A stretch of DNA of 64,000 nt from Dokdonella sp. (GTDB taxonomy: Bacteria > Pseudomonadota > Gammaproteobacteria > Xanthomonadales > Rhodanobacteraceae): the NCBI RefSeq assembly GCF_035511235.1, contig NZ_DATKFQ010000010.1, forward strand, positions 44,074-108,073, in the 5' to 3' direction. The notes beneath the pieces are model-generated. The model did not search any database. It saw nothing but the letters and a program-made list of their open reading frames with translations, and was not told the DNA's origin. The position numbers were made by a program, and so were the translations under genes. The stretch's first letter is position 1, and each line of letters begins with the position of its first letter. Below are positions 19,343 to 39,526 of this stretch, one piece after another.

Positions 19343-21202
19343 ATGAGGAAAGTCCTGTTATCGGCAACGGCATTGGCGACGGCGCTCGCATCGACGCTGG
19401 CGCTGGCCAACGACAAGCTCGTCCAGCTCTCGCAGAGCGAAGAGAACTGGGTGATGACCGGCAAGAACTACAACGCCAACAACTTCAGCAAGGCGACCCA
19501 GATCAACGACAAGAACGTCAAGCAGCTGCGTCCGGCATGGACGTTCTCGACCGGCGTGCTCAACGGCCACGAGGGCACGCCGCTGGTCGTCAACGGCACG
19601 ATGTACATCCACTCGCCGTTCCCGAACCTCACCTTCGCGCTCGATCTTGCGAACCCCACGCGCATCAAGTGGATGGACAAGCCCAAGCAGAACGCGGCCG
19701 CGCGCGCGGTGGCCTGCTGCGACGTCGTCAACCGCGGCCTGGCCTACTGGCCCGGTGACGGCAAGGTGCCGGCGCTGATCTTCAAGACCCAGCTCGACGG
19801 CCACATCGTCGCGCTCAACGCCGAGACCGGCGAGACCTACTGGAAGCTCGAGAACTCCGACATCCGCGTCGGCTCGACGCTGACGATCGCGCCGTACGTG
19901 GTCAAGGACTACGTGATCGTCGGCTCCTCCGGCGCCGAGCTCGGCGTGCGCGGCTATCTGACCGCCTACGACGTCAAGACCGGCGAGCAGAAGTGGCGCG
20001 CCTATGCGACCGGCCCCGACGAGGAGCTGCGCCTGGCCAAGGACTTCAACAGCGCCAATCCGCACTACGGCCAGTTCGGCCTCGGTCTCAAGACCTGGGA
20101 AGGCGAGGCCTGGAAGATCGGCGGCGGCACCAACTGGGGCTGGTACGCGTTCGATCCGGCGACCGACCTGATCTACTTCGGCAGCGGCAACCCGGCGCCG
20201 TGGAACGAGACCATGCGTCCGGGCGACAACAAGTGGACGATGACGATCTGGGGCCGCAACGTCGATACCGGCATGGCCAAGTTCGGCTACCAGAAGACGC
20301 CGCATGACGAATGGGACTACGCCGGCGTCAACGTCATGATGCTGTCCGAGCAGACCGACAAGGCCGGCAAGAAGCGCAAGCTGCTGACCCATCCGGACCG
20401 CAACGGCATCATCTACACGCTGGACCGCGAGAACGGCGATCTGATCTCGGCCGACAAGCTCGACGATACGGTCAACTGGGTCAAGAGCGTGGACCTCAAG
20501 ACCGGCCTGCCGCTGCGCGATCCGGAGTTCGCCACGCGCATGGACCATAACGGCCGCGACATCTGCCCGTCGGCGATGGGCTATCACAACCAGGGCCACG
20601 ACTCCTACAACCCCGACAAGCAGCTGTTCTTCCTCGGCATCAACCACATCTGCATGGACTGGGAGCCGTTCATGCTGCCGTACCGCGCAGGTCAGTTCTT
20701 CGTCGGCGCCACGCTCAACATGTACCCGGGCCCGAAGGGCGATCGCCAGAACTACGAGGGCCTGGGCCAGATCAAGGCCTACAACTCGATCACCGGCGAG
20801 TACAAGTGGGACAAGATGGAGCGCTTCGCGGTCTGGGGCGGCACGCTCGCGACTGCCGGCAACCTGGTGTTCTACGGCACGCTCGACGGCTTCATCAAGG
20901 CGCGCAACGCCGACACCGGCGACCTGCTGTGGAAGTTCAAGCTGCCGTCCGGCGTGATCGGCCATCCGATGACCTATACGCACAAGGGCACGCAGTACGT
21001 CGCGATCTTCTACGGCGTCGGCGGCTGGCCCGGCATCGGCCTGGTGCAGGATCTGGAGGATCCGACGGCCGGTCTCGGCGCGGTCGGCGCGTTCAAGAAG
21101 CTGGCCAACTACACGCAGATGGGCGGCGGCATCATGGTGTTCTCGCTCGACGGCAAGGGTCCGTACGACGACATCAATCTCGGCGAATACGCCAGCAACT
21201 GA
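19343..21202 (+). CDS. mxaF: Ca2+-dependent PQQ methanol dehydrogenase, large subunit
   Basis: [28 protein letters not shown], and DEWDYAGVN (Ala at the position of the lanthanide-binding Asp). GGAGG RBS. Confidence 0.97.
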
Positions 21203-21212
21203 GGCCTCGCGG

Positions 21213-21239
21213 CACGGGGCGTCGCAGTGACGCCCCGTG
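21213..21239 (+). terminator. Stem-loop after mxaF (attenuator or mRNA-stabilising hairpin)
   Basis: CACGGGGCGTC-GCAGT-GACGCCCCGTG perfect 11-bp stem, weak U tract. Confidence 0.6.
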
Positions 21240-21273
21240 TCTTCCGATCCACGCGACGAAACGGGATTCGTGC

Positions 21274-22116
21274 ATGTTCCTACGTGTGTTCCATCGCTTT
21301 TTCCGCGCCGGCGTCTGCGCCGGCGGTCTCGCCCTGGCCTCACTGCCGGCGGCAGCCGCGCCCGAGTCCCTGCGCATCTGCGCCTCGGAGATCGAGGCGC
21401 CCTACTCGTACAAGGACGGCAGCGGCTTCGAGAACCGCATCGCCGAGATCGTCGCCCGCCAGATGGGACGCAAGGCGGACTTCGTCTGGTCGCCGCGCGC
21501 GGCGATCTACCTGGTCCGCGACGGCCTCGACAAGAACGAATGCGACGTCGTCATGGGCCTGGACAGCGGCGACGAGCGCGTGCTGACCACGCGCCCGTAC
21601 TACCGCGCCGGCTACGTGTTCGTGACGCGCGCCGACCGCGACCTCTCGATCGACACCTGGAACGATCCGCGGCTCAAGCAGATGAACTCGATCGCGATGG
21701 GCTATGCCTCGTCGGCCGAGGCGATGATCAAGAAGATCGGCAAGTACGAGGACAACGCCAACTACGTCTACTCGCTGACCGACTTCAAGTCGCGGCGCAA
21801 CCAGTACATCCGCGTCGATCCGGCGCGCATGGTCAACGAGGTCGCGCAGGGCAAGGCCGACCTCGCGATCGCGTTCGCGCCGGAGGTCGCCCGCTACGTC
21901 AAGTCGTCCACGGTGCCGCTGAAGATGCAGCGCGTGCCGGCCGACGACACCGGCAGCGGCGAGCCGATCCCGTTCCAGTTCGACCAGTCGATGGCGGTGC
22001 GCAAGAACGACCGCGCCCTGCTCGACGCGCTCAACGCCGCCCTCGCGGCCGCGGCACCGCAAATCCAGAAAGTGCTCAGTGACGAAGGCATACCGGTCGT
22101 TCCGGCTGCTTCCTGA
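21274..22116 (+). CDS. mxaJ: MxaJ periplasmic binding-protein-like MDH accessory
   Basis: LRICASEIEAPYS...GFENRIA, PYYRAGYVFV. Position directly after mxaF. Confidence 0.93.
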   Translation: MFLRVFHRFFRAGVCAGGLALASLPAAAAPESLRICASEIEAPYSYKDGSGFENRIAEIVARQMGRKADFVWSPRAAIYLVRDGLDKNECDVVMGLDSGDERVLTTRPYYRAGYVFVTRADRDLSIDTWNDPRLKQMNSIAMGYASSAEAMIKKIGKYEDNANYVYSLTDFKSRRNQYIRVDPARMVNEVAQGKADLAIAFAPEVARYVKSSTVPLKMQRVPADDTGSGEPIPFQFDQSMAVRKNDRALLDALNAALAAAAPQIQKVLSDEGIPVVPAAS

Positions 22117-22163
22117 GATCGCTTGTGACCCCAGGCCACCCGGACCACCCAGATAGGTAGACG

Positions 22164-22724
22164 ATGAAGAAAACCCCGCGAATCGCCGGCGTGCTGAGCC
22201 TCGCCGTCCTGTCGTGTGCCGCAGCGGCGGCACAGGCGCAGATCACCTTCCGCAACGTGACCGATGGATCGGCGCTGGACCTGTCCAATGCACGCGAGGA
22301 AGATCGCGACACGCCCGGCGTCAAGCAGTTCCTCGAGACCGGAAGGAACCCTTACAACAGCAAGCCGGCCTGCCTCAAGAAGGGCGAGAACCTGATGCTG
22401 ACGGCCTGTTCGGCCTGCCACGGCCACTATGCCGAGGGCAAGATCGGCCCGTCGCTGACCGACGACTACTGGACCTACCCGGAAGGCAAGACCGACGAGG
22501 GCCTGTTCTCGATCATCTTCGGCGGCGCGCGCGCGCAGATGGGACCGCAGTACCTGTCGCTGACGCTCGACGAGATGCTGCAGGTGATGGCCTGGGTGCG
22601 CCACATCTACCACGGCCCGGCCGAGGCGGCCGACTGGATGAGCGAGGAGGAACGCAAGGCCTATGTACCCTGGTCTCCGGACCAGAAGCTCGAGGTTCCG
22701 GACGGCGCGGTCTGCGCGCCTTGA
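22164..22724 (+). CDS. mxaG: Cytochrome cL
   Basis: CSACHG heme motif, GKIGPSLTDDYWTYP, GGARAQMGPQ. Confidence 0.95.
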   Translation: MKKTPRIAGVLSLAVLSCAAAAAQAQITFRNVTDGSALDLSNAREEDRDTPGVKQFLETGRNPYNSKPACLKKGENLMLTACSACHGHYAEGKIGPSLTDDYWTYPEGKTDEGLFSIIFGGARAQMGPQYLSLTLDEMLQVMAWVRHIYHGPAEAADWMSEEERKAYVPWSPDQKLEVPDGAVCAP

Positions 22725-22732
22725 CGGAGCCT

Positions 22733-22757
22733 GCCGTGCCGAGCCGATCGGCACGGC
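22733..22757 (+). other. Intergenic hairpin after mxaG
   Basis: GCCGTGCCGA-GCCGA-TCGGCACGGC, 10-bp stem. Confidence 0.5.
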
Positions 22758-22828
22758 GCTGCGACGGACGCCGCCGGACGCGCCGGCGGACCCATGATGG
22801 TTCCACTGCACCACACCGAGGAGCGAAG

Positions 22829-23140
22829 ATGAAATCGAACACCGCACGCATGCGCATTCCGCTGTCCCTGCTCGCGATCGGCGTCGCCGCCCTGTGCGGC
22901 GGCCAGGCACTGGCCTACGACGGCACCAAGTGCAAGGAAGCCGGCAACTGCTGGGAGCCCAAGCCGGGCTATCCGGAAAAAGTCGCCGGCTCCAAGTACG
23001 ACCCGAAGCACAATCCGAACGAGCTCAACAAGCAGTCGGTGTCGCTCGCCGCGATGGAGGCGCGCAACGCCCAGCGCGTCGCGAACTTCAAGAAGACCGG
23101 CAAGTTCGAGTACGACGTCGCCAAGCTGCCCAAGCCGTGA
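22829..23140 (+). CDS. mxaI: Methanol dehydrogenase small subunit
   Basis: YDGTKCKEAGNCWEPKPGYPEKVAGSKYDPKH signature. GAGGAG RBS. Confidence 0.97.
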   Translation: MKSNTARMRIPLSLLAIGVAALCGGQALAYDGTKCKEAGNCWEPKPGYPEKVAGSKYDPKHNPNELNKQSVSLAAMEARNAQRVANFKKTGKFEYDVAKLPKP

Positions 23141-23145
23141 CCCGC

Positions 23146-23182
23146 GCGGCCGCCCGACCGCTGTGCCGGCACGGGCGGCCGC
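23146..23182 (+). other. Intergenic hairpin after mxaI
   Basis: GCGGCCGCCCG...CGGGCGGCCGC, 11-bp stem. Confidence 0.5.
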
Positions 23183-23261
23183 CGCGACGCGCCACCGCCG
23201 CCCGCGCAGCCGCGCGGGCGCGCGCTGCCGGGACGACCTCTGCTGCGACGACGACTGCTTC

Positions 23262-24305
23262 GTGAATATCCCATCGGTTTCCGCGTCACCCGCGCCCCCG
23301 GACCTGGACGCCTGGCGCGAACGCGCGCTCGGCTTCGAACGCGAGATCGCACGCGCCGTCGTCGGCCAGGCGCCGGCGCTGCGCCTGCTGACGATCGCGG
23401 TGTTCGCGCGCGGCCATGTGCTGCTCGAGGGCGACGTCGGCGTCGGCAAGACCACGCTGCTGCAGGCCGCCGCGCGCGCGATCGGCGGCGACTACGGCCG
23501 CATCGAGGGCACGATCGACCTGATGCCGGCCGATCTGGTCTATCACACCTCGCTCGACGAGCACGGCCGTCCGCGCGTGGAGCCGGGGCCGGTGCTGCGC
23601 CACGGCGAGCGCCTGGCGGTGTTCTTCTTCAACGAGATCAACCGCGCGCGGCCGCAGGTGCATTCGCTGCTGCTGCGCCTGATGGCCGAGCGCAGCCTGT
23701 CGGCGTTCAATCGCGAATACGCCTTCCCGTATCTGCAGGTATTCGCCGACCGCAACCAGGTCGAGCGCGAGGAAACCTTCGAACTGCCGGCGGCGGCACG
23801 CGACCGCTTCTTCATGGAGATCGCGATCGCCACGCCTGCCGATCCGGACGTGCGCCGCGACCTGATCTTCGATCCGCGCTACCACGACGTCGCGGCGCTG
23901 GTCGAGGCGGTGACGCCGGGCGTGCTCGATCCGGCCCGGCTCGACGCGGTGGCGCGGGCGATCCAGCAGCACGTTCGCGCCAGCGACCGCCTGCAGCGCT
24001 ACGTCGAGGCCCTGTGGACGGCGGTGCGCGATCCGGCGCGCGCCGGCATCGGGATCGCCGACGTCGACACCGAGCGCCTGATCGCCGGCGGCGCCAGTCC
24101 GCGCGGCATGGCCTATCTGGTGCGCGCCGCGCGCGTGCGCGCCTGGCTCGAAGGCCGCGACATGCTGGTGCCCGAGGACCTGCGCGCGGTGTTCTTCGAG
24201 ACCGTCGCGCATCGCATCTTCCTCGCGCCGGTCTACGAAGCGCGCCGCGCGGCGATCCTGCCGGCGCTGTGCCGCGCCGTCTTCGAGACGGTGCCGGTGC
24301 CCTGA
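23262..24305 (+). CDS. mxaR: MoxR-family AAA+ ATPase (start uncertain)
   Basis: EGDVGVGKT, FFNEINRARP, ADRNQVEREETFELP. GTG start chosen at 23262. Confidence 0.92.
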   Translation: MNIPSVSASPAPPDLDAWRERALGFEREIARAVVGQAPALRLLTIAVFARGHVLLEGDVGVGKTTLLQAAARAIGGDYGRIEGTIDLMPADLVYHTSLDEHGRPRVEPGPVLRHGERLAVFFFNEINRARPQVHSLLLRLMAERSLSAFNREYAFPYLQVFADRNQVEREETFELPAAARDRFFMEIAIATPADPDVRRDLIFDPRYHDVAALVEAVTPGVLDPARLDAVARAIQQHVRASDRLQRYVEALWTAVRDPARAGIGIADVDTERLIAGGASPRGMAYLVRAARVRAWLEGRDMLVPEDLRAVFFETVAHRIFLAPVYEARRAAILPALCRAVFETVPVP

Positions 24306-24312
24306 ACGCCGC

Positions 24313-25191
24313 GTGGAATCCGCCGTGAGCGCCGCTGCCCGCACCGCCGACCCGGCGACCGATCAGACGGCGCTGGCCTATGCACTGCGCTGGCGCGTGC
24401 GCAGCCTGCGGCCGGGCGCGCATCGCGGCGCGGATACCGGACCGACCGGCGCGTTCCGCCGGCTCGTGCCGTTCGAGCGCAGTCCCGACGCGCGCCGTCT
24501 CGACCTGCGCGCCAGCCTGCGCGATCCGTTCGGCGGCCTCTACGTGCGCCAGTTCGAGCAGCGCAGCGCCGCCTCGGTGCAGGTCTTGATCGACACATCG
24601 GCGTCGACCGCCTTCGACGCCGGCCACGGCAGCGCGCTGTCGCGCGCGATCGCGCTGACGCGGCAGATCGCCGCTGCGGTCCGCACCTATGGCGATGCGC
24701 TGGGCCTGGTCGCCGGTGCCGCGAGCGCGCGCGCCGAGCGGCCGCCGCTGCGCGAGAGCGCCGATGCCGTGATCGAGGCGCTGCAGCGGCTCGCCCCGCA
24801 AGGCCGCGGCATCGACGCGCTGCTCGATGCGGCGCGTACGCTCGGCACGCGCCGCCGCCTGGTCTTCGTGCTGTCCGATTTCGCGTTCGCGCCGGCGACG
24901 CTCGCCACGCTGCTCGAGGCACTGGCCGCGCACGACGTGGTGCCGGTCCGGTTCGGCCACGAGGCGTGGACGCAGCTGCCGCGCTACGGCCTGGCCGAAC
25001 TCGCCGACCTGGAGACGGGCCGGCGCCGCCTGGTCTGGATCCGGCCCGGCCTGCGCGCGCGCTGGCACGCGGCCGAGGCCGCACACCGCGAGGCAGTCGC
25101 CGCGCTGTGCCGGCGCCATGGGCAGCCGCTGCTCGACCTGCCCAGCGCGCTCGACGTCGAGGCGGTCAGCCGGCATCTGCTGGAGCGATGA
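24313..25191 (+). CDS. mxaS: MxaS (DUF58/vWA-like)
   Basis: PGAHRG, DARRLDLRASLRDP, IDTSAST. Follows mxaR. Confidence 0.88.
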   Translation: MESAVSAAARTADPATDQTALAYALRWRVRSLRPGAHRGADTGPTGAFRRLVPFERSPDARRLDLRASLRDPFGGLYVRQFEQRSAASVQVLIDTSASTAFDAGHGSALSRAIALTRQIAAAVRTYGDALGLVAGAASARAERPPLRESADAVIEALQRLAPQGRGIDALLDAARTLGTRRRLVFVLSDFAFAPATLATLLEALAAHDVVPVRFGHEAWTQLPRYGLAELADLETGRRRLVWIRPGLRARWHAAEAAHREAVAALCRRHGQPLLDLPSALDVEAVSRHLLER

Positions 25192-26123
25192 GCACGATGC
25201 GCACCCTGCTCCTGCCGAACCGCCATGCCCGGCCCGCCCTGCTCTGCCTGCTGATCGCATCCGGTGCGGCCGCCGACGACGGCCCGATCCGCGAAGTGCA
25301 GCCGCTCGACGCGCGCACGGTCGGCTACACGCTCGGCGATCGCGTGCCGCGCAGCGTGCTGCTGCGCGTCGATCGCGACTGGCAGCTGCAGACCGCCGCG
25401 CTGCCGGCGCCGGGGCCGCAGACCTACTGGCTCGAGCTGCGCGCGGTCGACGTGCACGAGCGGCTGGAGCGCGACGCGCGGGTCTACCGCATCGATCTCG
25501 ACTACCAGACCTTCTATGCGCCGATCCAGGCGCTCGAACGCAGCCTGCCGGCGTTCGAGGTGACGGTCGGCCGCGGCGAGCAGACCGCGAGCGCGCGCGT
25601 GCCGCCGTTCCGCTTCACGATGTCGCCGCTGCGCGAGGTCAAGCTCAGCGCCGGCGGCGACCAGCGCGCGCCGTCCATGCTGCGCCCCGACATCGAGCCC
25701 GGCCCGCGCCCGCTGCGGCCGGCGTTCGCCGCGCTGGGCGGCGCGGTCGTCCTGGCCGCCGCATTCGCGCTGGCGCTGGCCTGGCACTACGCGCGCTGGC
25801 CATTCGGACATCGGCCGGCGCGGCCGTTCGCGCAGGCCGCGCGGCGTCTGCGCCGTCCGGCGGACTATCGCGACGCCCTGCTGACCGTGCACCGCGCGTT
25901 CGACGCGACCGCCGGCCGGCGCGTGCTGGCCGAGGACGCCGCCGCGCTGATCGAGGCGCAACCGCGCCTCGCACCGCTGGCGGCCGACATCGCGCGCTTC
26001 TTCGACGCCTCGCGCCGCGCGTTCTTCGGCAGCGGCGAACGCGAGGCGGCCGCGCTGCTGCCGACCGCGGAGCTCGCCGCGCTGGCGCGGCGGCTGGCCG
26101 CGGCCGAACGGAGACCGGCATGA
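25188..26123 (+). CDS. mxaA: MxaA Ca2+-insertion accessory protein
   Basis: GYTLGD, LDYQTFYAP, VHRAFDATAG. ATGA coupling and operon position. Confidence 0.85.
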   Translation: MSTMRTLLLPNRHARPALLCLLIASGAAADDGPIREVQPLDARTVGYTLGDRVPRSVLLRVDRDWQLQTAALPAPGPQTYWLELRAVDVHERLERDARVYRIDLDYQTFYAPIQALERSLPAFEVTVGRGEQTASARVPPFRFTMSPLREVKLSAGGDQRAPSMLRPDIEPGPRPLRPAFAALGGAVVLAAAFALALAWHYARWPFGHRPARPFAQAARRLRRPADYRDALLTVHRAFDATAGRRVLAEDAAALIEAQPRLAPLAADIARFFDASRRAFFGSGEREAAALLPTAELAALARRLAAAERRPA

Positions 26124-27139
26124 ACCCTGCCGGCGACTGGCTGCTGCTGCGGCCGCTGGCGCTGGCGCTGCTGCCGCTGGCGCTGCTGCCGTGGCTGAAC
26201 TCGGGACGCCGCATCTCGGCCTGGCCGTGGTCCGGCACGCTGCCGGTCGATCCGGCCTCGACCGGGCTCGATCGCGCTCTGCGCCTGCTCGCCTCGGCGG
26301 CGATCGCGGCCTTCGTGCTGGCGCTGGCCGGACCGGGCCTGCGCGGCCAGCAGGTCGAGCGCGTCAGCACCGGCGCGCGCGTGGCGATGGTGATCGACCG
26401 CAGCGGCAGCATGAACAGCACGTTCGCCGGCCGCGCACCGGACGGCGGCGAGGAATCCAAGGCCGCCGCCGCGCGCCGTCTGCTCAAGGCGTTCGTGACG
26501 CGCCGCGAACACGACCGCGTCGGCATCGTCGCGTTCTCGACCTCGCCGATGTTCGTGCTGCCGATGACCGATCGCCACGCCGCGGTCCATGCCGCGATCG
26601 ACGCGATCGACCAGCCCGGACTGGCCTATACCGACGTCGCACGCGGCCTGGCGATGGCGTTCGACCTGTTCGACGCGCGCGACCCGATCGCCTCGCAGGC
26701 GATCGTGCTGGTCTCCGACGGCGCGGCCGTGATCGACCGGCGCGTACAGGAGAAGCTGCGCGCGGCGTTCGCGGCGCGGCCGCTGCACCTGTACTGGCTG
26801 TTCCTGCGTACCGAGCGCAGTCCCGGCCTGTTCGAGGCGCCGGCCGATCCGCGCGATGACACGCCGCAGCGCATGCCCGAGCGCCATCTGCACCGGTTCT
26901 TCGAATCGCTCGGCGTGCCGTACCGCGCCTTCGAGGCCGACAGCGCGGCCGAGCTGGCCGCCGCGATCGCGGCGATCGACCAGGCCGAACGCGGCGAGGT
27001 GCGCTGGCTGGAGGCCTTGCCGCAGCGCGACCTGTCGGCGTTCGCGTTCGCGCTGGCCGCACTGGCCTGCCTGCTGCTGGCGATCGCCAAGCGCTTGGAA
27101 GTGCGGATCGGTCCCCCGCTGCCGGTGCTGCGGCCATGA
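26120..27139 (+). CDS. mxaC: MxaC vWA-domain protein
   Basis: DRSGSM MIDAS motif, VLVSDG, LYWLFLR, MPERHLHRFF. Confidence 0.88.
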   Translation: MNPAGDWLLLRPLALALLPLALLPWLNSGRRISAWPWSGTLPVDPASTGLDRALRLLASAAIAAFVLALAGPGLRGQQVERVSTGARVAMVIDRSGSMNSTFAGRAPDGGEESKAAAARRLLKAFVTRREHDRVGIVAFSTSPMFVLPMTDRHAAVHAAIDAIDQPGLAYTDVARGLAMAFDLFDARDPIASQAIVLVSDGAAVIDRRVQEKLRAAFAARPLHLYWLFLRTERSPGLFEAPADPRDDTPQRMPERHLHRFFESLGVPYRAFEADSAAELAAAIAAIDQAERGEVRWLEALPQRDLSAFAFALAALACLLLAIAKRLEVRIGPPLPVLRP

Positions 27140-29227: not shown

Positions 29228-29289
29228 ACGCAGCGTGACACAGCCGGGGCGCGCGTCCGCGCTCGCGCCCCGCCGATCCCGCACCGATC

Positions 29290-30485: not shown

Positions 30486-30530
30486 CGGCGTACTTCAGTG
30501 AACCGTCAAACCATGAGCGACGTCCGACTC

Positions 30531-30561
30531 CCTGAGTCGGCAAATCGCAGCCGTTTCTTAC
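30531..30561 (-). promoter_or_regulatory. ECF-type promoter driving the sigma/anti-sigma pair
   Basis: GTAAG-N17-CGACTCAGG on the - strand. Confidence 0.75.
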
Positions 30562-30585
30562 AACCATACCTTCTCTTTTTTCCAA

Positions 30586-30616
30586 GTAAGAAAACGCCCC
30601 CACGCGGCGACTCAGG
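30586..30616 (+). promoter_or_regulatory. ECF-type promoter driving the amidohydrolase operon
   Basis: GTAAG-N17-CGACTCAGG on the + strand, with the same conserved blocks and spacing as the - strand copy. Confidence 0.75.
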
Positions 30617-30648
30617 AGACCAACCCCACCGACAGGAAGGCAGGACCG

Positions 30649-32097
30649 ATGCAACGCTCGAACCCCGCAGGATCGCTGCTCCGATCCGTCCTGTTGCTTT
30701 CATTGTCTCCCGGGCTGGCCTTTGCATCGTCCGCACCGAACGTGCTGGCCCTCGACAACCTGCGTCTGGTCGACGCCGAGCGCAATCGCGTCGACGCACC
30801 GAGTTGCCTGCGTGTCGAAGGCAGGCGCATCGCGCGGATCGACCAGCCCGGAAAGAAGTCGTGCCTGGACGGCGCCCGCGTCGTCGACCTGCGCGATCGC
30901 TACGTCATGCCGGGACTGATCGACATGCACGCCCACCTCACCCTGGGCCCGATGGAGATCAAGCGCGAACGCGGTCGTGCCGTGATGCAGGCGCTGCCCG
31001 ACGACGAGATCGCCGAGCACAACGCGGCTCGCCTGATCGCGTTCGGCGTCACCACGATCCGCAATCCCGGCGGCGATCTGGCTGCAGCGGCACGTTACAA
31101 GGCCCGCCTGACCGCCGGCGAGCTGACCGGCCCGGAATCCTTCAACGCCGGACCCGTGATCAACAATGCCGATCTCCCCGGCCTGGCGACGGCGGCGCGC
31201 AATCCGGAGGACATGGCGCGTGTCGTGAGTGCGCAGGTCGAGGCCGGCGCCGACTGGATCAAGCTCTACACCGGCCTGTCGCCGGCATTGCTCAAGGCCG
31301 GTGTCGAGGCCGCGCACCGGCACGGCCGGCCGGCGGTCGCACACCTGGAGGCGATCGCCTGGCCGGACGCCCTGGCGACGGGCCTGGACGGCATCGTCCA
31401 TCTGATGCCGCTGAGTCCGGACCTGCTCACGGCGCAAGAGCGCACGGCCTGGCAGGCGACCGCACGCGGCGGCACCTATTCGTTCTTCGAATGGTGGGAG
31501 CATTTCGATCCCGATGGCGCCGGCGCCGATCGCATCGTGACGGCCTTCGAGCGCTACCGCCCGGTGTTCGACGCCACGCTCGTGGCATTCCATGCCGCAT
31601 TCGTGCAGGACCAGGACAACCCCTACAAGGACGACGCGCGCCGCTACGCCCATCCGCGGCTGCTCGCCCACTGGAACGACTGGTTCACCTTCGCCATCGG
31701 CTGGCAGCCGCAGGACTTCGAGCGCGCCCGGGCCGTATGGCCGAAAGTGCAGCGGATGGCGGTGCGGCTGTATGCCACCGGCGCCCGCATGACGATCGGC
31801 ACGGACATGAGCAATCCGTGGATCGCGCCCGGCATCAGCCTGCACCGCGAGTTGCAGCTGCTGGCCGACGCCGGCGTGCCCGCGAACCGCCTGCTGCTCG
31901 CCGCCACGCGCAATGCCGCGCAAGCCCTCGGCGCCGGAGAGCGGCTGGGTCGGGTCGCGCCTGGCTACGAGGCCGACCTGCTGATCCTCGAGGCCAATCC
32001 GCTGGAAGACATCGGCCACACGCGCGCCATTCACGCCGTCGTCGTCGACGGCACGCTCCTGACCGCCCCGACCCTGACCCGCCTCAAAGGACCGTGA
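30649..32097 (+). CDS. Secreted amidohydrolase-family metallo-enzyme
   Basis: Signal peptide, PGLIDMHAH (HxH), ADWIKLY, IGTD, GYEADLLILEANPL. Confidence 0.88.
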   Translation: MQRSNPAGSLLRSVLLLSLSPGLAFASSAPNVLALDNLRLVDAERNRVDAPSCLRVEGRRIARIDQPGKKSCLDGARVVDLRDRYVMPGLIDMHAHLTLGPMEIKRERGRAVMQALPDDEIAEHNAARLIAFGVTTIRNPGGDLAAAARYKARLTAGELTGPESFNAGPVINNADLPGLATAARNPEDMARVVSAQVEAGADWIKLYTGLSPALLKAGVEAAHRHGRPAVAHLEAIAWPDALATGLDGIVHLMPLSPDLLTAQERTAWQATARGGTYSFFEWWEHFDPDGAGADRIVTAFERYRPVFDATLVAFHAAFVQDQDNPYKDDARRYAHPRLLAHWNDWFTFAIGWQPQDFERARAVWPKVQRMAVRLYATGARMTIGTDMSNPWIAPGISLHRELQLLADAGVPANRLLLAATRNAAQALGAGERLGRVAPGYEADLLILEANPLEDIGHTRAIHAVVVDGTLLTAPTLTRLKGP

Positions 32098-32099
32098 AC

Positions 32100-32642
32100 A
32101 TGACTCGCCACATTCGCATCGGCTCCTGCCTGCTCACCGCGGCTCTGACCATCGGCCTGGCCGGCGCCGCTCACGCCGGCTCCGAGGATTGGCAATCCCC
32201 GGAAGCCATCGTCCACGCGCTCTACCAGACGATCTCCGCCGACCCCGGTGCCAGGCGCGACTGGGATCGCTACCGCGCATTGTTCCTCGACGGTGCCAGG
32301 CTGTCGGTGGCGATGAACTCGAAGGTCGGCAGCGGCATTCTGGGCATGGACAGCGAGGAGCTGATCGCACAGACGGAGACCGCATACGCCGCGACCGGCT
32401 TTCACGAAATCCCGCTGGTGACGCGCGTCGAGCGGCACGGACTTCTGGCCTCGGTGATGAGCAGCTTCGAGGTCCGCCTGCGCCTGGCCGACAAGAAGCC
32501 ACTGATGCGCGGTCTGAACCACTTCCAGCTGCTCAATGACGGCGAGCGATGGTGGATCGTCTCCAACGTCGGCACGATCGAAACGCCGACATCCCCTCTC
32601 CCAGCGGATCTGCTGCCGGAGAAGACGGGCGGTGCGAAATGA
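32100..32642 (+). CDS. Secreted NTF2-like (DUF4440/SnoaL-like) protein
   Basis: Signal peptide, IVHALYQTIS...DWDRYRALF, RGLNHFQL...RWWIVS. Confidence 0.7.
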   Translation: MTRHIRIGSCLLTAALTIGLAGAAHAGSEDWQSPEAIVHALYQTISADPGARRDWDRYRALFLDGARLSVAMNSKVGSGILGMDSEELIAQTETAYAATGFHEIPLVTRVERHGLLASVMSSFEVRLRLADKKPLMRGLNHFQLLNDGERWWIVSNVGTIETPTSPLPADLLPEKTGGAK

Positions 32643-32923
32643 GCACGCGGTCCACGGACGAAGTCGTTCGATCGCAGCGAAGGATGCGTCGCGCGCAACG
32701 ATGGATCGTGCTGGCCGGTACGGCATGCGTGCTGTCGTGGATCGCGCTGATCACCGGTCTGCTGATGCAGGTGGACACCGGAATCCGGATCGCCCTGGCG
32801 ACCGCGGCGGCCGTGACCACAGAAGGTACGTTCTGGCTGGCAGCACTGCTGCTCGGCGTGAGCGTTTATCAGGCGCGACAGCGACTCTGGGCAACGCTGA
32901 AACGCAGGTTCGCCGCAAAATGA
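32639..32923 (+). CDS. Small 2-TM membrane protein
   Basis: ATGA coupling, two hydrophobic segments, TEGTFWLAALLLG. Confidence 0.6.
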   Translation: MSTRSTDEVVRSQRRMRRAQRWIVLAGTACVLSWIALITGLLMQVDTGIRIALATAAAVTTEGTFWLAALLLGVSVYQARQRLWATLKRRFAAK

Positions 32924-33066
32924 GCGGGTAGCGGCGGAAGACGACCGAAGCCGGGCACCGGCGACGGACCGTGCAAACCGTGCAGCGAGAGGCGAGCCTC
33001 GATGTCCCCCTGCGCTGCCATCGGGTGAGCGGCGGCCGCCGTCCCGGCACGGCGCCTGCGCCGGGT

Positions 33067-34050
33067 CTATTTGCCGATCACCACGCCCCACGGCAGTTCG
33101 CCGACCGCGATGTCCTTGATCTTCTTGCGCGTGGCCGTGTCGATCACGCTGACGCTGTTGGAGCGGCCGTTGGCGACGTAGAGCTTGCGGCCGTCCGGCG
33201 TCAGCGCCGGGTTCCACGGCCGCTCGCCGACCTTGATCTCGGCGACCGCCTCGCCCTTGGCGACGTCGATCACCGAGACGCTGCCGGCGCCGCCGTTGGA
33301 CGCATAGACGAACGCGCCGTCGGGACTGACGGTCAGGCCGGCGGTGCGCAGCCCGGCCGCGATGCTGCCGGTCTTGCTGCGCGAGGCCAGATCGATCACG
33401 TCGACGACGTTGGCGGTCTCCTGCGCGACGTAGACCCGCGTGGTCTTGGGCAGGAACGCCATGCCGCGCGGGTGGCCGCTGGTCTTGATCACGGCGACCG
33501 AGCGGGCCGCGGCGACGTCGATGACGTCCAGATCGCTGCTGGCCTCGTTGCTGGTCAGCAGCCACTTGCCGTCCGGCGAGAACACGCAGTGCTCGGGATT
33601 GCGCCCCTGCGTGGCGACGTCGGCGCGGATCTTCAGCGTTGCCGCGTCGACCAGCAGGATGTGCTGCGAACCTTCGACGCAGACCGCGAGCGAGGCGCCG
33701 TCCGGCGAGACCGTGACGCCTTCGGCGTCCTCCTCGATCGGCACGCGCGTGCGCACGCTGTCCGAGGCGATGTCGAGCGCGACCAGCGCATTGTGCGCGG
33801 CGTCGATCACGAACAGCGTCTTGCCGCCCGGATCGAGCGCGACCTGCTGCAGGCGCTTGCCGAGCTCGCCCTGCGCGCTCAGCGTGCGTACGACCTCGTC
33901 GCTGCCGGTGTCGATGACCGAGATCGTGCCGCTGCGCTGGTTCGGCACGTAGGCCATCGGCGCCGCGCCGGCGCTCGTGGCGCCGAACGCCGCGGCGAGC
34001 GCGAGCGCGGCGGTCAGCAGACGGCCCGGGCGCAGAAACGATCGAAACAT
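33067..34050 (-). CDS. YVTN-type beta-propeller protein of the kind associated with PQQ dehydrogenase clusters
   Basis: Signal peptide, AYVPNQRSGTISVIDT, repeated SPDG..YV.N...SVSVID, VGELPWGV. GAGGAG RBS. Confidence 0.88.
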   Translation of the reverse strand: MFRSFLRPGRLLTAALALAAAFGATSAGAAPMAYVPNQRSGTISVIDTGSDEVVRTLSAQGELGKRLQQVALDPGGKTLFVIDAAHNALVALDIASDSVRTRVPIEEDAEGVTVSPDGASLAVCVEGSQHILLVDAATLKIRADVATQGRNPEHCVFSPDGKWLLTSNEASSDLDVIDVAAARSVAVIKTSGHPRGMAFLPKTTRVYVAQETANVVDVIDLASRSKTGSIAAGLRTAGLTVSPDGAFVYASNGGAGSVSVIDVAKGEAVAEIKVGERPWNPALTPDGRKLYVANGRSNSVSVIDTATRKKIKDIAVGELPWGVVIGK

Positions 34051-34174: not shown

Positions 34175-34732
34175 TCAGTGCTTGCCGACGTCGAGCGGTG
34201 CGTCGGTCGCGTGTTTGGACGCGTCGCCGTACTTCTTCGCCTCGCTGCCGCGCCAGTTGGAGCGGACGAACGTGATGATCTTCCACAGATCGTCGTCGCT
34301 CTTGACGATCGTGCCGAACGGCATCATCGGTCCGACCACGTTCTCCTTGCCGATCCGATGATAGCCGTCCTTCTGCAGCGCGTCGCTGCCTTCGGAGATC
34401 AGGCGGAACAGCGTGTCGTCATCGCCGCCGTAGACCCAGGTCTCGTTGGTCAGCGGCGGACACATGCCGCCGCCGCCGGAGCCGCCGTGGCAGCCGTTGC
34501 AGCTGGCACGCAGGAACAGCTTGCGTCCTTCCTCGACGATGGCCTTGTCCGAATCCTGGTACGGATTCTTGAGCTGTCCCTTCGGCGTGGACTTGATGCG
34601 CTCGAGCGGCGGCATCGTCCCTGCCGCGGGCGCAGCGGCCGGATCGGCGGCCGACGACGTCGCCGGCAGACCGAGCCACACGGCCGCCGCCAGCACCAAC
34701 GAAACACTTGCTGCAACTGCTTTGTTCAACAC
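34175..34732 (-). CDS. xoxG: Monoheme cytochrome c, XoxG-like
   Basis: CNGCHG, GGGMCPPLTN.TWVYGGDDDTLFRL. GTG start with GAGGAG RBS. Located downstream of xoxF/xoxJ. Confidence 0.8.
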   Translation of the reverse strand: MLNKAVAASVSLVLAAAVWLGLPATSSAADPAAAPAAGTMPPLERIKSTPKGQLKNPYQDSDKAIVEEGRKLFLRASCNGCHGGSGGGGMCPPLTNETWVYGGDDDTLFRLISEGSDALQKDGYHRIGKENVVGPMMPFGTIVKSDDDLWKIITFVRSNWRGSEAKKYGDASKHATDAPLDVGKH

Positions 34733-34793: not shown

Positions 34794-36461
34794 TCAGCCA
34801 CGCTGCGCCGGACCGCCTGAACCGCCACCGGATGCGCGCGCGTGCTCGAGCACCTCGACCACGGCGCGGTTGTCGCGTTCGCTGGCGATGCCGAGGGCGG
34901 TGGTGCCGTCCTCGCTGGCCGCGCCGGCGTCGGCACCGTGCTGCAGCAGCAGCCGCACCGAATCGACGCGGTTGGCCGCGGCCGCGATGATCAGCGGCGT
35001 GATGCCGGCCTTGTTCTGCGCGTTGACGTCGGCGCCGCGCTCGACGAGCTTGGCCGCCGCATCGTCCCAGCCGCCGACCAGGGCCAGCATCAACGGCGTG
35101 TAGCCGCCGGCGCCGACGCTGAGATTGGCGTTGGCGCCGGCCGCGAGCAGGGCGGCGACCGCGCCGGAGCGGCCGTGCTGGGCCGCGATGCACAGCGGCG
35201 TCAGCCCCTGCTGGTTGGCGGCCTCGAGCTTGGCGCCCTTCTCGAGCAGCATGCCGACGATCTCCGGACTGTCGCGCCAGGCCGCGTACATCAGCGGCGT
35301 CCAGCCGTCGCGGTCGGCCAGGTTGACGTCGGCGCCGTGCTGGATCAGAAAGCGCGTCAGGTCGTTGTAGCGCGTCTTGACCGCGGTCAGCAGCGGCGTG
35401 TAGCCCTCGTCGTCGCGGGTGTCGACGTCGGCGCCATGCTCGAGCAGGTAACGGACGCGCACGACGTCGCCGGCGGTCGCGGCGTTGGACAGTTCGTCGT
35501 TCGGATCGGCGCCTTCGCTGAGCCAGCGCTTCAACTGGTCGAGGCTGGCGCCGGTGCCGCCGGACGGTGTCGCCATCGAGGCCACTTCGGTCTTCGGCTG
35601 CGCGGCGGCCTGCTGCGCGACCAGCTCGCCGCTGATCACGCATTCGGCGCACTGCACCAGCGGCACGCCGTACTCGTCGAGGATCGCGCGGATCTGGTCC
35701 TTGCGGCTGACCAGCACCTCGTCGAGCTTGTCGCGCAGGCCGCGGTCGCCGCGGCGCACGCCGAGCGCCATCTCGAACTGCAGCGGCGGATCGGTCGCCA
35801 TCAGATTGACCGGCTGCAGCGTGATCGGCGCCTGCTTGATCGTCTTGTACCAGCCGGCGAACGGGCCCCAGATCGCGACCAGATCGAGTTCGCCGTCGAG
35901 CATCCGCTGCACCTGATAGGTCGGCTGGTGCTCGGGCACGGTGGCGCCGTCGTAGCTGATGAAGTGCGTGACGGTGTTGTCCTTGATGCCGTGGTCGGCC
36001 AGCGCCTCGCGCACCGAGGACATCTGGTAGACGCCGATCTTGAGCTTCTTGAGGCGCGGATCGTCGAAGTTCTCGAAGCGCAGCTTGCGGTCCGTGCGCG
36101 AGGCCAGCACGAAGGTGCTGCGGTAGACCGGCCGCGTCGTCAGCACGCGCTCCAGGCCGACCGGCAGGTCGAACATCACGTCGCACATGTTGGCGTCGAG
36201 CGTGCCGCGCATCAGGCCGCGCTCGGTCGACGGACGGAAGTCGTACTGCACGCCGGTGCCGAGCGCCTCGCCGAGCACCTGCGCGATCTTGTTCTGGAAG
36301 CCTTCGCCCTTGTCGTTGGACAACGGCATGTTGCCCGGATCGGCGCAGACGCGCAGCGCGCGAATCTGCGGCGCCTGAGCCTGTGCCGCGCCGGGCGCGA
36401 GCGCGCTCGCAGCGGCGGCAACGGCGAGAGCGCTCGCCAGCGGGATGTGGATCCGGACCAT
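34794..36461 (-). CDS. xoxJ: XoxJ/MxaJ-like periplasmic binding protein fused to about 7 ankyrin repeats
   Basis: LRVCADPGNMPLSNDKGEGFQNKIA N-domain, then repeated G.TPL..A......V..LL..GAD.N units. Confidence 0.85.
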   Translation of the reverse strand: MVRIHIPLASALAVAAAASALAPGAAQAQAPQIRALRVCADPGNMPLSNDKGEGFQNKIAQVLGEALGTGVQYDFRPSTERGLMRGTLDANMCDVMFDLPVGLERVLTTRPVYRSTFVLASRTDRKLRFENFDDPRLKKLKIGVYQMSSVREALADHGIKDNTVTHFISYDGATVPEHQPTYQVQRMLDGELDLVAIWGPFAGWYKTIKQAPITLQPVNLMATDPPLQFEMALGVRRGDRGLRDKLDEVLVSRKDQIRAILDEYGVPLVQCAECVISGELVAQQAAAQPKTEVASMATPSGGTGASLDQLKRWLSEGADPNDELSNAATAGDVVRVRYLLEHGADVDTRDDEGYTPLLTAVKTRYNDLTRFLIQHGADVNLADRDGWTPLMYAAWRDSPEIVGMLLEKGAKLEAANQQGLTPLCIAAQHGRSGAVAALLAAGANANLSVGAGGYTPLMLALVGGWDDAAAKLVERGADVNAQNKAGITPLIIAAAANRVDSVRLLLQHGADAGAASEDGTTALGIASERDNRAVVEVLEHARASGGGSGGPAQRG

Positions 36462-36658
36462 CGGGTGACTCCTCATTGCTTTGTGCGGTACGGGCGCCTG
36501 CCCGCCGGCCGCACGCGTCTGCATCGAACGGCGCAAGCCACGCCTGCGCCCCTTGCTCCGGCGGACTGCGACTTGGGCCGCCACCGGACCGAACGCCGCG
36601 GTCATGTCCGAGGCGACCTTGCGCCTGCCGGATCTGCGGAACAACACGACCTTGGTGG

Positions 36659-36696: not shown

Positions 36697-36729
36697 CTTT
36701 CGATCGATCGACTCAACCCGCCAGGTGCA

Positions 36730-38589
36730 TCAGTCGCCCACGCGGAACGTGTAGAGCGTGCCGCCCTGCGGAATCTTGTCGAGGTTGGCCGCCTTGGTCA
36801 TCGCGGTGGCGCCGATCGCGCCGAACTTGTCCTCCAGATCCAGGCCCGCGGTGACCGGCAGGCCGATCCAGCCGCCGATGCCGCTCCACACCGACACGTA
36901 CTGCTTGCCGTTGACCTTGTAGGTGATCGGGTTGCCGATCACGCCGGAGCCGAGCTTGCGCGACCACAGCACCTTGCCGGTCTTGCGGTCGACCGCGCGG
37001 AAGTCGCCGCCGAGGCTGCCGTAGAACGCCAGGCCGCCGTCGGTGATCAGCGCGCCGCCCCAGTTCGGATACGGATCGGGGATCTCCCACACCGTCTCGC
37101 CGGTCAGCACGTTGAACTTCTTGAACTTGCCGGTCACGCCCGGCTTCTCCGGGTACATGTAGACGTTGGCGAACACGTAGACCGTGCCCTGCTGGGTGTG
37201 CGCACGCTCCTGAGGCTCGAGCTCCATGCACCAGTTGTTGGTCGGGCAGTAGGCGACGCCTTCCTCGTTCGGATCGAGCGCGCACGGCTGCTGGTCCTTG
37301 CCGCCCATCGCCGACGGGCAGACCTGCGTGTTCTGCTCGACCGAGAACGGCGAGTGCTCCTTGACCTTGACCGGCTTGCCGGTCTTCATGTCGACCTTCT
37401 CGGCCCAGTTGGCGGTGACGTACTTGTGCGCCTTGAGCAGGGTGCCGTCGACGCGGTCGAGCACGTAGGCGAAGCCGTTGCGGTCGAAGTGCACGAGGAC
37501 CTTGCGCTTCTTGCCGTCGATCGTCCAGTCGGCCAGCATGTTCTCGTTGATGCCGTCGTAGTCCCACTGGTCGAACGGCGTCATCTGGTAGGCCCATACC
37601 GCCTCGCCGGTATCGATCTTGCGCGCGAAGATCGTCATCGACCAGTGGTTGTCCTGGCTGCCGTCGTTGCACTCCTCGTGGGTCTTGTGCTTGCAGCGGA
37701 ACGAAGGACTCCACAGGCCCGGGTTGCCGGTCGCGTGGTAGACCAGCTTGAGCTCCGGGTCATAGCTGTAGAAGCCCCAGCTGGCGCCGCCGCCGCGCTT
37801 CCACTCGTCGCCCGGATAGCCGGTGACGCCCAGATCCTTGCCGCCCTGGCCGTAATGCGGATTGGCCTTGTTGGTGTTCTTGGTCACGCACACGTCCTTG
37901 TCGGGACCGGTGGCGTGGCATTCCCAGAGCTTCTTGCCGTCGGCCAGGTTGTAGGCCGTGAAGCGGCCGCGCGCGGCGAACTCGTCACCGCCGAAGCCGA
38001 TCAGCACCTTGTTCTCGGCGATCAGCGGCGCCGGCGTGATCGTCTCGCCGTTCTCGGGGAACGCGTGCTTGACGACCCACAGCTCCTTGCCGGTCTTGGC
38101 GTCGAGCGCGATCACGAAGCCGTCGAGCGTGCCGAACACGACCTTTCCGTCGGCGTAGGACAGGCCGCGGTTGACCGTGTCGCAGCAGGCGCGCGGCACC
38201 GCCGACTCGTCGCGGTCCTCCTGCTTGACGTACTTCCAGATCGCCTTGGGATTGTCCGGGTCGCTCAAGTCCAGCGCCTGCACGATGTTCGGCCAGCCGC
38301 TGATCAGGTACATCATCGCCTTGCCGCCCTCGGTCACGACGACCGGCTGGCCCTCGTGGCCGCGCAGCGTGCCGCTGGACTGCGACCAGATCATCTGCAG
38401 CTTGCCGACGTTGTCGGTCGAGATGTCCTTGAGCGGGCTGTGCCGCGTCATCGACAGATCGCGGCCGGGCGCCGGCCACTGGTTCGGATCCTTCTGCCGC
38501 TCGATCGTCTCCGGGTTCGCCATCGCGCCCGCACTGACCGCCCCCATGAGCACCGCGGTACACACCATCGCTACTCGTCGAAATTTCAT
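36730..38589 (-). CDS. xoxF: Lanthanide-dependent PQQ methanol dehydrogenase, XoxF1-like
   Basis: [24 protein letters not shown], and WDYDGINE (second Asp = Ln3+ ligand). Clade assignment is by recollection of sequence style only. Confidence 0.92.
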
Positions 38590-38706
38590 TCGTTGCTCTC
38601 CTCATTCGCAGACGGAAGACCCCTGGCAACGGCGATGCCGAAGGCACCTACCCACGGGCCGCGCGCTACCAACCAGCACCTCGTCGATCGTTGCGCGACG
38701 CTTGTT

Positions 38707-38724
38707 AAGCAGCGGATGTGCCAA
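38707..38724 (-). promoter_or_regulatory. Sigma-54 (-24/-12) promoter of xoxF
   Basis: TTGGCACATCCGCTGCTT on the - strand (GG-N10-GC), about 118 bp upstream of the ATG. Confidence 0.75.
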
Positions 38725-38775
38725 GCGCGAAGACGGACATTGCGGCCTGACGATTCAAGGAGTTGCGGACGTGCC

Positions 38776-38816
38776 CGGGAGAATTTCCTGTTGCGTTGCA
38801 ATAGGAATTGCTCCCG
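38776..38816. promoter_or_regulatory. Paired palindromes (candidate upstream activator sequences) of xoxF/azurin
   Basis: CGGGA-GAATT-TCCTG (38776-38790) and TAGGA-ATTGC-TCCCG (38802-38816), centres 26 bp apart. Confidence 0.7.
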
Positions 38817-39082
38817 AAGTGACACACTGGCGTTCAGGCGGAACAGCGGCGGCCGCGGCCGGCCCGAGGCGCCGGAGCCGCCTGCGCCGCGACGCGACCG
38901 ATCGTCGCAGTGCGCACCGCCGACACCGTATTCATGCCGGCCGGCTTATCATGGCCGCGGTCGTCGACGAGTCCGTCATGCCAAGGTCCGGCGCCAGCAT
39001 CCGCTCGCGCACCGGCACCCGCCCGAAGAACGGACATCGACCCACGCAACCTTCCTCCACCGGTTCTCAAGGAGTCACATCC

Positions 39083-39526
39083 ATGTCCAGACTATTGCTC
39101 GCCGCCGGCCTGTTCGCGCTGGCCGCCCCGGTCTTCGCCGCCGAATGCTCGGTCGACATCGCCGGCGACGACATGATGAAGTTCGACAAGACCAGCATCG
39201 AGGTCAGCAAGAGCTGCAAGCAGTTCACGGTCAACCTCAAGCATCCCGGCCAGCTCGCCAAGAACGTGATGGGCCACAACTGGGTGCTGGCCAAGACCTC
39301 CGACGTCCAGGGCGTGGCGACCGACGGCATGTCGGCCGGCCTCGACAAGGACTACATCAAGCCCGGCGATGCCCGCGTGATCGCGCATACCAAGGTGATC
39401 GGCGCCGGCGAGACCGACTCGGTGACGTTCGACGTCTCCAAGCTCGCGGCCGACGGCGACTACACGTTCTTCTGTTCGTTCCCGGGCCACTGGAGCATCA
39501 TGAAGGGCTCGCTGAAGCTGATCTGA
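39083..39526 (+). CDS. azu: Azurin (blue copper protein)
   Basis: [34 protein letters not shown] copper ligands. AAGGAG RBS. Confidence 0.97.

Follow-up and report, generated by a model that had tools for sequence, protein, structure and literature searches.

The closest described counterpart of the system reported here is the mxaFJGIRSACKLD(EHB) operon of Hyphomicrobiales, which is found in Methylorubrum extorquens, Hyphomicrobium, Ancylobacter, Xanthobacter and Methylopila. In model methylotrophs, the mxaRSACKLD genes are required for calcium insertion and maturation, and the M. extorquens operon has a sigma-70 promoter under the control of MxbDM, MxcQE and MxaB. Autotrophic methylotrophs of the Paracoccus and Xanthobacter type carry methanol through methanol dehydrogenase (MDH) and the glutathione (GSH)-dependent enzymes FlhA and FghA to formate and then to CO2, which enters the Calvin cycle. 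Among lanthanide-type enzymes, the relevant reference is XoxF1 of Methylacidimicrobium thermophilum AP8 (structure 7O6Z), a kinetically characterised MDH (PMC8546591). Here we describe a locus from Dokdonella sp. (Xanthomonadales; Rhodanobacteraceae) that carries relatives of both enzyme systems. It lies in a stretch of 64,000 nucleotides (contig NZ_DATKFQ010000010.1, positions 44,074 to 108,073), hereafter called the window, and consists of an mxa operon that converges on a xoxF cluster.

The locus encodes a standard mxa and xoxF1 apparatus in an unexpected lineage, with a sigma-54 design that is specific to this lineage. We consider it likely that the locus is a true methanol-oxidation island that has long resided in a Dokdonella sublineage and would feed oxidation to CO2 and then the Calvin cycle, and the host probably lives partly on methanol. 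In the proposed route, periplasmic MxaFI (when only calcium is present) or XoxF1 (when lanthanides are at hand) would oxidise methanol to formaldehyde. Electrons would pass via MxaG or XoxG, and perhaps an adjacent azurin, to the respiratory chain. Formaldehyde would be converted through S-hydroxymethylglutathione to formate and CO2, and carbon assimilation, if any, would proceed by the Calvin cycle, as in Paracoccus denitrificans, Xanthobacter and Ancylobacter. A bolder proposal, which we advance tentatively and with some doubt, is that this sublineage comprises the first Xanthomonadales methylotrophs, autotrophic on methanol by GSH-linked oxidation and the Calvin cycle, and that mxaF and xoxF1 share a promoter design based on sigma-54 and a bacterial enhancer-binding protein (bEBP).

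Because the window has a G+C content of 70%, genes were called from third-position G+C first, and the calls were then checked against family libraries. The mxaFJGIRSACKLD operon is intact at positions 19343-29227 on the + strand, where all 11 genes occur in canonical order with no internal stop codons:

19343-21202, + strand: mxaF, large subunit of the calcium- and pyrroloquinoline quinone (PQQ)-dependent MDH, 619 amino acids with a signal peptide (TIGR03075, 681 bits)
21274-22116, + strand: mxaJ (TIGR03870 (MoxJ) equivalog, 357 bits against a cut-off of 258)
22164-22724, + strand: mxaG, cytochrome cL (TIGR03872 equivalog, 203 bits against a cut-off of 148)
22829-23140, + strand: mxaI, MDH small subunit (PF02315, 151 bits, profile positions 3-87 of 87)
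23262-24305, + strand: mxaR, MoxR ATPase (Pfam AAA_3)
24313-25191, + strand: mxaS (Pfam DUF58)
25188-26123, + strand: mxaA (by colinearity with named methylotrophs)
26120-27139, + strand: mxaC (Pfam VWA; VWA_2 among the operon matches)
27136-27714, + strand: mxaK (by colinearity with named methylotrophs)
27711-28691, + strand: mxaL (Pfam VWA; VWA_2 among the operon matches)
28688-29227, + strand: mxaD, SRPBCC protein (Pfam Polyketide_cyc2)

The genes from mxaF to mxaS are separated by gaps of 7-121 nucleotides, and 4-nucleotide overlaps occur at S/A, A/C, C/K, K/L and L/D. MxaF carries vicinal cysteines in the sequence ACCDVVNRG and a DYAG motif in DEWDYAGVN, with Ala at the position where lanthanide enzymes have Asp. 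Other active-site positions are also present, including the E of GAELGVRG and an active-site N. The best solved relatives of the protein are the MDH large subunits 9ism, 1h4i and 1w6s, each at about 1200 bits. MxaA and MxaK have no matches in the family libraries, and their identity rests on colinearity. All 11 proteins have colinear homologues 3' of mxaF in Methylorubrum, Hyphomicrobium, Ancylobacter, Methylopila, Xanthobacter and Methylosinus (33-83% identity; 33-71% for MxaRSACKLD). A preliminary description of the window had proposed an uninterrupted 11-gene mxa operon whose MxaF carries DYAG, and gene order, family matches and colinear homologues bear this out. The locus thus encodes a complete Ca/PQQ MDH system, composed of MxaFI, the cytochrome cL MxaG, MxaJ and the maturation proteins MxaRSACKLD.

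The operon of Hyphomicrobiales has the same 11 genes in the same order. The MxaF proteins are 79-83% identical, the other ten proteins are 33-79% identical, and DYAG, MxaI and cytochrome cL are common to both systems. Unlike the Hyphomicrobiales operon, that of Dokdonella resides in a gammaproteobacterium, converges on a xoxF1 cluster, and has neither mxaE/H/B nor mxaW beside it.

The second half of the island is the xox cluster, together with a divergent azurin gene:

33067-34050, - strand: YVTN beta-propeller protein, final gene of the cluster (TIGR02276 repeats)
34175-34732, - strand: xoxG, c-type cytochrome with a CNGCH haem motif (PF00034 and PF13442; weak match to MoxG TIGR03872)
34794-36476, - strand: xoxJ with a C-terminal ankyrin fusion, 560 amino acids (TIGR03871, 250 bits against a cut-off of 212; Ank_2, 170 bits)
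36730-38589, - strand: xoxF, lanthanide-type PQQ MDH (TIGR03075, 566 bits) with DYDG in DQWDYDGIN
39083-39526, + strand: azurin, divergent from xoxF, at the right edge of the island (TIGR02695 equivalog, 205 bits)

Compared with solved structures, XoxF scores 890 bits against 7o6z (XoxF1), followed by 4mae (585 bits), 6dam (499), 6oc5 (493) and the PedH structure 6zcw (278). We assign the predicted enzyme to the XoxF1 clade by these match scores to solved structures rather than by a full phylogeny of the clades. The alignment with the AP8 enzyme covers residues 11-617, and DYDG and an insertion region are held in common. The Dokdonella cluster differs from that of AP8 in its proteobacterial host, its XoxJ-ankyrin protein, XoxG, YVTN propeller and azurin, and in the co-resident full Ca-MDH system. 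The YVTN propeller reaches 174 bits against TIGR03866 ('PQQ-dependent catabolism-associated beta-propeller'), which is under the cut-off of 287. Azurin is a possible periplasmic electron carrier that might serve as an alternative acceptor downstream of XoxG. Its gene adjoins xoxF in three other genomes (G025, G541 and G190) and occurs only in the window's island-bearing clade. The preliminary description had ended the whole region at position 39526, as if with a xox gene. This coordinate is instead the stop of the azurin gene.

Other genes for methanol metabolism are found elsewhere in the same genome. PQQ synthesis is represented by the pqqA peptide, pqqC (340 bits) and the PqqE equivalog TIGR02109 (505 bits). 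The pqqABCDE genes are split by a contig break, with pqqA and the N-terminus of pqqB at the start of contig C39, and the C-terminus of pqqB, pqqC and pqqD/E at the end of contig C25. FrmA (FlhA), the GSH-dependent formaldehyde dehydrogenase, matches TIGR02818 with 724 bits, and FghA, the S-formylglutathione hydrolase, matches TIGR02821 with 421 bits. Contig C38 carries a cbb operon of the arrangement cbbR/cbbL-S-X-fbp-prk-tkt-fba-rpe, in which RuBisCO (NF003252, 785 bits), PRK (NF011997, 504 bits) and CbbX (TIGR02880, 502 bits) all score above cut-off. Two other formaldehyde routes were ruled out by the lack of their markers. Mch, the marker of the tetrahydromethanopterin route (PF02289), is found in 0 of 37 Dokdonella genomes, and archaeal controls were positive. 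No match above cut-off was obtained for hexulose-6-phosphate synthase, the marker of the ribulose monophosphate route (TIGR03128), for which the best score in the window's own genome is 27.8 bits against 200. For formate dehydrogenase, a crude motif search gave no interpretable match.

The modules for MxaFI/XoxF, PQQ synthesis, FrmA(FlhA), FghA and cbbLSX-prk with cbbR are the same as those used for autotrophic methylotrophy by Paracoccus denitrificans, Xanthobacter and Ancylobacter. Dokdonella belongs to a different class from these organisms, and its route is predicted from its genes. In two relatives, Dokdonella sp. MW10 (G048, a closed chromosome; locus L008, 7589-11854) and PS02065 (G101; contig C69), frmA is the divergent neighbour of mxaF. 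In this clade, therefore, methanol oxidation is physically linked to GSH-dependent formaldehyde oxidation. The preliminary description had also suggested a dual-metal methanol oxidiser. The co-occurrence of pqq genes, GSH-linked FrmA/FghA and a cbb operon, for which it had recommended a search, strengthens this proposal, which stays a genomic prediction.

A separate quinoprotein alcohol-oxidation locus was observed at C20:24000-33000. It encodes a third PQQ alcohol dehydrogenase of 575 amino acids (TIGR03075, 519 bits), which is judged to be Ca-type because of its motif DSWDWAG. Its neighbours encode a Rieske-type protein, an aldehyde dehydrogenase and an AcoR-like sigma-54 activator.

The distribution of the island was examined with MxaI (PF02315) as the marker, which gave no false positives in 14 control genomes. 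MxaI is present in 6 of 37 Dokdonella species genomes. Wider samples yielded 5 of 201 genomes in the family (1 of 30 genera, namely Dokdonella), 4 of 401 in the order (2 of 99 genera) and 14 of 400 in the class. The second genus of the order is represented by a single genome from another Xanthomonadales family (G257). Thus, the claim that the mxa system is unusual in this order holds, and the notion that mxa operons are common in Rhodanobacteraceae is ruled out by their occurrence in 1 of the 30 sampled genera. Among the 37 genomes, those with XoxF1 (92% identity or more) are precisely the six that bear mxa. A match to pqqC, whose locus is distant from the island, occurs in five of these six and in none of the other 31 Dokdonella genomes. 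Form I RuBisCO is found in all six and in two of the other 31. FrmA is core to the genus, as it is present in 29 of 29 high-quality genomes with or without mxa.

The host belongs to the genus Dokdonella (Rhodanobacteraceae), and MW10 and a Dokdonella sp. metagenome-assembled genome (MAG) are named relatives. A scan of species-representative genomes found MxaF at 93% identity in MW10 and at 99% in this MAG, where it lies on a 2.1-Mb contig. Two other records, QFPO01000019.1 ('Rhodanobacter denitrificans' MAG) and JASCPI010000052.1 ('Lysobacteraceae bacterium PS02065'), are grouped in the genus of the window and carry a Dokdonella-type island; their labels look outdated or wrong.

The window's own genome is a 45-contig draft, and the preliminary description had raised the question of a chimera. 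In a closed Dokdonella genome (G025; one contig, 4.45 Mb), XoxF and MxaF are 98% and 96% identical to the window proteins. The arrangement in which mxaD converges on YVTN-xoxG-xoxJ-xoxF is the same in two closed chromosomes (G025 and MW10) and on the 2.1-Mb contig of G541, a Dokdonella MAG that is 99% complete. The G+C content of the mxa genes is 0.705 compared to 0.706 for the genome, their third-position value is 0.914 (genome reference, 0.889 +/- 0.038), and their distance to mean codon usage falls inside the distribution of the genome. The host-like codon style that had been noted by eye is therefore real, and both enzyme systems are fully adapted to it. A chimera or binning error is ruled out by the recurrence of the arrangement in closed genomes, as far as sequence comparison allows.

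To the right of the island, a block of ELM1-like, YceI and GT4 genes is kept in all nine Dokdonella genomes inspected. It opens with the ELM1-like gene (39777-40829) and is also kept in genomes that lack mxa, whereas azurin was not found at this block in the mxa-lacking genomes inspected. The right border of the island is therefore placed between azurin and the ELM1-like gene. In the window's own genome, the gene that ancestrally stood to the left of the ELM1-like gene is on a separate contig (C13). The island thus marks a break in synteny, and the comparison gave no clean empty site.

MxaF proteins of Dokdonella and G257 form one clade that spans two families (support 97 in a quick tree; in a careful tree, 99/92 and recovery in 100% of bootstrap trees). 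The window MxaF is 85.7% identical to that of G257, 79-83% identical to those of Hyphomicrobiales, and 70.6-76.3% identical to those of other Gammaproteobacteria, including the former Betaproteobacteria. In the maximum-likelihood tree, the Xanthomonadales proteins are nested among Hyphomicrobiales clades with support of just 43-52, and a single clade of all gammaproteobacterial MxaF proteins stands up to an approximately unbiased (AU) test (p = 0.27). Acquisition from an alphaproteobacterium is plausible on these data but statistically unproven.

Within Dokdonella, the topology of MxaF is ((window, G190, G541), G025), (MW10, PS02065), which matches that of a tree built from three linked core markers (ELM1+YceI+GT4). 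Path lengths for MxaF and the markers are roughly proportional (0.006/0.12, 0.049/0.42 and 0.11/1.14). DNA identity in the mxaI region is 92-93% with the nearest species, 85% with G025 and about 80% with MW10. In the marker tree, the mxa-bearing species form two clades with mxa-lacking species between them, and so at least two changes (gain, loss or relocation) are required, none of them recent. The island also occupies two chromosomal sites. Its neighbour is the ELM1-like gene in the window's clade but frmA in MW10 and PS02065, where 1.16 Mb separate the island from the ELM1-like gene. A single acquisition in Dokdonella without further change is rejected on these two grounds. The pattern points to old residence with patchy retention, or to old movement within the genus, and not to recent import. 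The old acquisition suggested by the preliminary description agrees with MxaF divergence that tracks species divergence and with the host-like codon use.

Several conserved elements precede the two dehydrogenase genes:

16903-18315, + strand: gene for an NtrC-family sigma-54 activator, candidate regulator of mxaF and xoxF (Sigma54_activat, 230 bits; Response_reg; HTH_8)
18953-18987, no strand assigned: RGGA-N5-TCCY palindrome pair, GGGATTTTTTCCC and AGGAAAAAATCCT, at -391 and -369 of the mxaF ATG, candidate activator sites
19220-19235, + strand: sigma-54-type -24/-12 promoter TGGCCCGCTTCCTGCT, 123 nucleotides 5' of the mxaF ATG
38708-38723, - strand: sigma-54-type promoter TGGCACATCCGCTGCT, 134 nucleotides 5' of the xoxF ATG, with 15 of 16 consensus matches

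The mxaF element TGGCCCGCTTCCTGCT is identical in all six Dokdonella loci, where it is located at -123 to -125 of mxaF. A variant, TGGCCCGCGGCATGCT, occurs at about -129 of mxaF in G257. The upstream regions of 84 mxaF genes from outside Xanthomonadales contain eight sites of equal score, of which five are inside the coding start and three are upstream, and none is at the Dokdonella position. The xoxF element TGGCACATCCGCTGCT (in MW10, TGGCACAACCACTGCT) is found at -130 to -135 of xoxF in all four loci examined, including those of G025, MW10 and G541. The palindrome pair is kept in all Dokdonella mxaF upstream regions, and a similar pair is located at -226 and -200 of xoxF (near 38789-38827). 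Both Dokdonella clades keep these pairs; the background frequency of the palindrome in the window is 0.25 per kb. Overall, the sigma-54 sites and palindromes are kept across about 20% DNA divergence, and part of the design is seen in G257. Nothing convincing was found among long k-mers common to the mxaF and xoxF upstream regions.

The activator gene is directly 5' of mxaF in four Dokdonella genomes (window, G025, G541 and G190; 93-98% identity), a bEBP gene is also found 5' of mxaF in G257, and rpoN is present. Thus, transcription of mxaF and xoxF would start from conserved sigma-54 promoters with paired palindromes, probably through the adjacent NtrC-type activator. This differs from model alphaproteobacteria, in which control is exerted by MxbDM, MxcQE and MxaB. 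The arrangement suggests that mxaF and xoxF may be co-regulated by one bEBP instead of the canonical lanthanide switch.

Several observations weigh against the reading of the locus as a long-resident island that feeds methanol carbon to the Calvin cycle. G541 bears mxa and is 99% complete, and it gave no match to pqqC; the reason possibly lies in its assembly, similar to the contig split in the window's own genome. G550 and G553 have form I RuBisCO without mxa, xoxF1 or pqqC. Therefore, the cbb operon is not exclusively tied to methanol, and autotrophy is wider than the putative methanol users. MW10 and PS02065 have no activator gene adjoining the island, and we infer the link between activator and promoter from adjacency and motif conservation. 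Also to be counted here is the weakness of the crude motif search by which neither NiFe-hydrogenase nor SoxY was found in the window's own genome. In one alternative, which we consider unlikely though not negligible, the cells gain energy from methanol and remove formaldehyde while leaving methanol carbon unassimilated, and the cbb genes serve lithotrophic or formate-dependent life. This agrees with the description of Dokdonella isolates as ordinary aerobic heterotrophs (PMC8999231) and with the flagging of one Dokdonella MAG as a putative sulfide oxidiser (PMC8906906). The two RuBisCO-bearing genomes without mxa and the genus-wide presence of FrmA regardless of mxa also fit it. What argues for assimilation instead is the skew of the cbb operon, in 6 of 6 mxa-bearing compared to 2 of 31 mxa-lacking genomes, and, as far as a weak search allows, the absence of the hydrogenase and SoxY motifs. 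In addition, the nearest named organisms by MxaF identity are Ancylobacter and Xanthobacter, which are Calvin-cycle methylotrophs. A further question is whether the island is a general module for periplasmic alcohol oxidation, with dehydrogenases that act mainly on ethanol, other alcohols or, for XoxF1, formaldehyde. In vitro, formaldehyde and alcohols besides methanol are substrates of XoxF enzymes, and the third PQQ alcohol dehydrogenase indicates wider quinoprotein use in this genome. Even so, we regard this as quite improbable, since MxaF is 80-83% identical to characterised MDHs and is accompanied by the MDH-specific MxaI and cytochrome cL, and the closest relative of XoxF among solved structures is an XoxF1 MDH with characterised kinetics.

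Recent transfer from an alphaproteobacterial methylotroph such as Ancylobacter, with the genes as passengers that are not integrated in host physiology, would explain why the best MxaF matches outside Xanthomonadales are all from Hyphomicrobiales (79-83%, versus 70-76% for other Gammaproteobacteria). The sample that yielded the related MAG QFPO01 also yielded an Ancylobacter MAG. Against this, the highest identity to any alphaproteobacterium is 83%, the Xanthomonadales proteins form their own clade of two families, and the divergence of the island is in step with that of the host species. G+C content and codon usage are fully host-like, the promoters are lineage-specific sigma-54 sites, and the AU test leaves gammaproteobacterial monophyly standing. 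We therefore judge recent transfer to be very improbable. Less probable still, to the point that we give it almost no weight, is an artefact in which a methylotroph contig was misjoined or misbinned with a Xanthomonadales genome. The 45-contig draft and the mislabelling of one close relative, a MAG, would permit such an error, but two closed chromosomes and a 2.1-Mb contig bear the same island and flanks, G+C content and codon usage are uniform, and the right-flank synteny block is present in 9 of 9 inspected Dokdonella genomes.

The favoured reading, a long-resident methanol-oxidation island, concerns a lineage that is not regarded as methylotrophic. Full-text literature searches found no report of mxa genes, MDH activity or methylotrophy in Dokdonella or any Xanthomonadales. 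The only related mention retrieved was of XoxF1 from D. koreensis DS-123 (ANB17083.1), which was detected in a metaproteome and attributed to an organism called a non-methanotrophic heterotroph (PMC8999231). This protein is from the same genus and enzyme clade as the window XoxF. The study mentions XoxF only, and the mxa operon, pqq and cbb context of D. koreensis is undiscussed. In a study of a methane community, the Xanthomonadales MAGs were reported to be without methylotrophy functions (PMC7589939). The sequence itself is not new, because the genes are visible in public genome records; the interpretation is new.

If the prediction is confirmed by culture, Xanthomonadales and a genus common in soil and activated sludge would join the methanol users. 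This would bear on the reading of mxaF/xoxF amplicon and metagenome surveys and on methanol-dosed wastewater processes, where Dokdonella can reach high abundance: in one reactor supplied with acetate and methanol it rose to 17% (PMC8313272), an observation that is only circumstantial. Because cultured strains with closed genomes are available (MW10 and probably D. koreensis DS-123), the prediction is directly testable. Since the same conserved sigma-54 design is found on both dehydrogenase genes, the island also offers a tractable non-canonical case for the choice between calcium and lanthanide enzymes. If the shared sigma-54/bEBP design is real, it would constitute a lanthanide-switch circuit unlike the MxbDM/MxcQE/XoxF-sensing scheme of model methylotrophs.

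The fusion of XoxJ to an ankyrin part of about 250 amino acids is widespread in public data, with 4945 database proteins matching at E<=1e-20. The best 120 of these 4945 matches are all 537-586 amino acids long and have Ank domains. The usual annotation is 'quinoprotein dehydrogenase-associated ABC transporter substrate-binding protein'.

The convergence of the mxa operon on xoxF (with DYDG), xoxJ and xoxG stands as the preliminary description had it, and is refined by the XoxJ-ankyrin fusion and by a 3.8-kb cassette (29228-33066) that separates mxaD from the xox genes:

29440-30003, - strand: putative anti-sigma factor
30000-30485, - strand: extracytoplasmic function (ECF) sigma factor (NCBIfam sigma70-ECF)
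30649-32097, + strand: secreted amidohydrolase (NCBIfam amidohydrolase)

The third-position G+C content of the cassette is 0.83-0.86, which is below that of its neighbours. In G025 and MW10 the cassette is missing and mxaD adjoins the YVTN gene. The cassette genes are unmatched in G541, yet about 2.4 kb lies between mxaD and the YVTN gene. The cassette is present in G190. It is an insertion that stands outside the methanol system.

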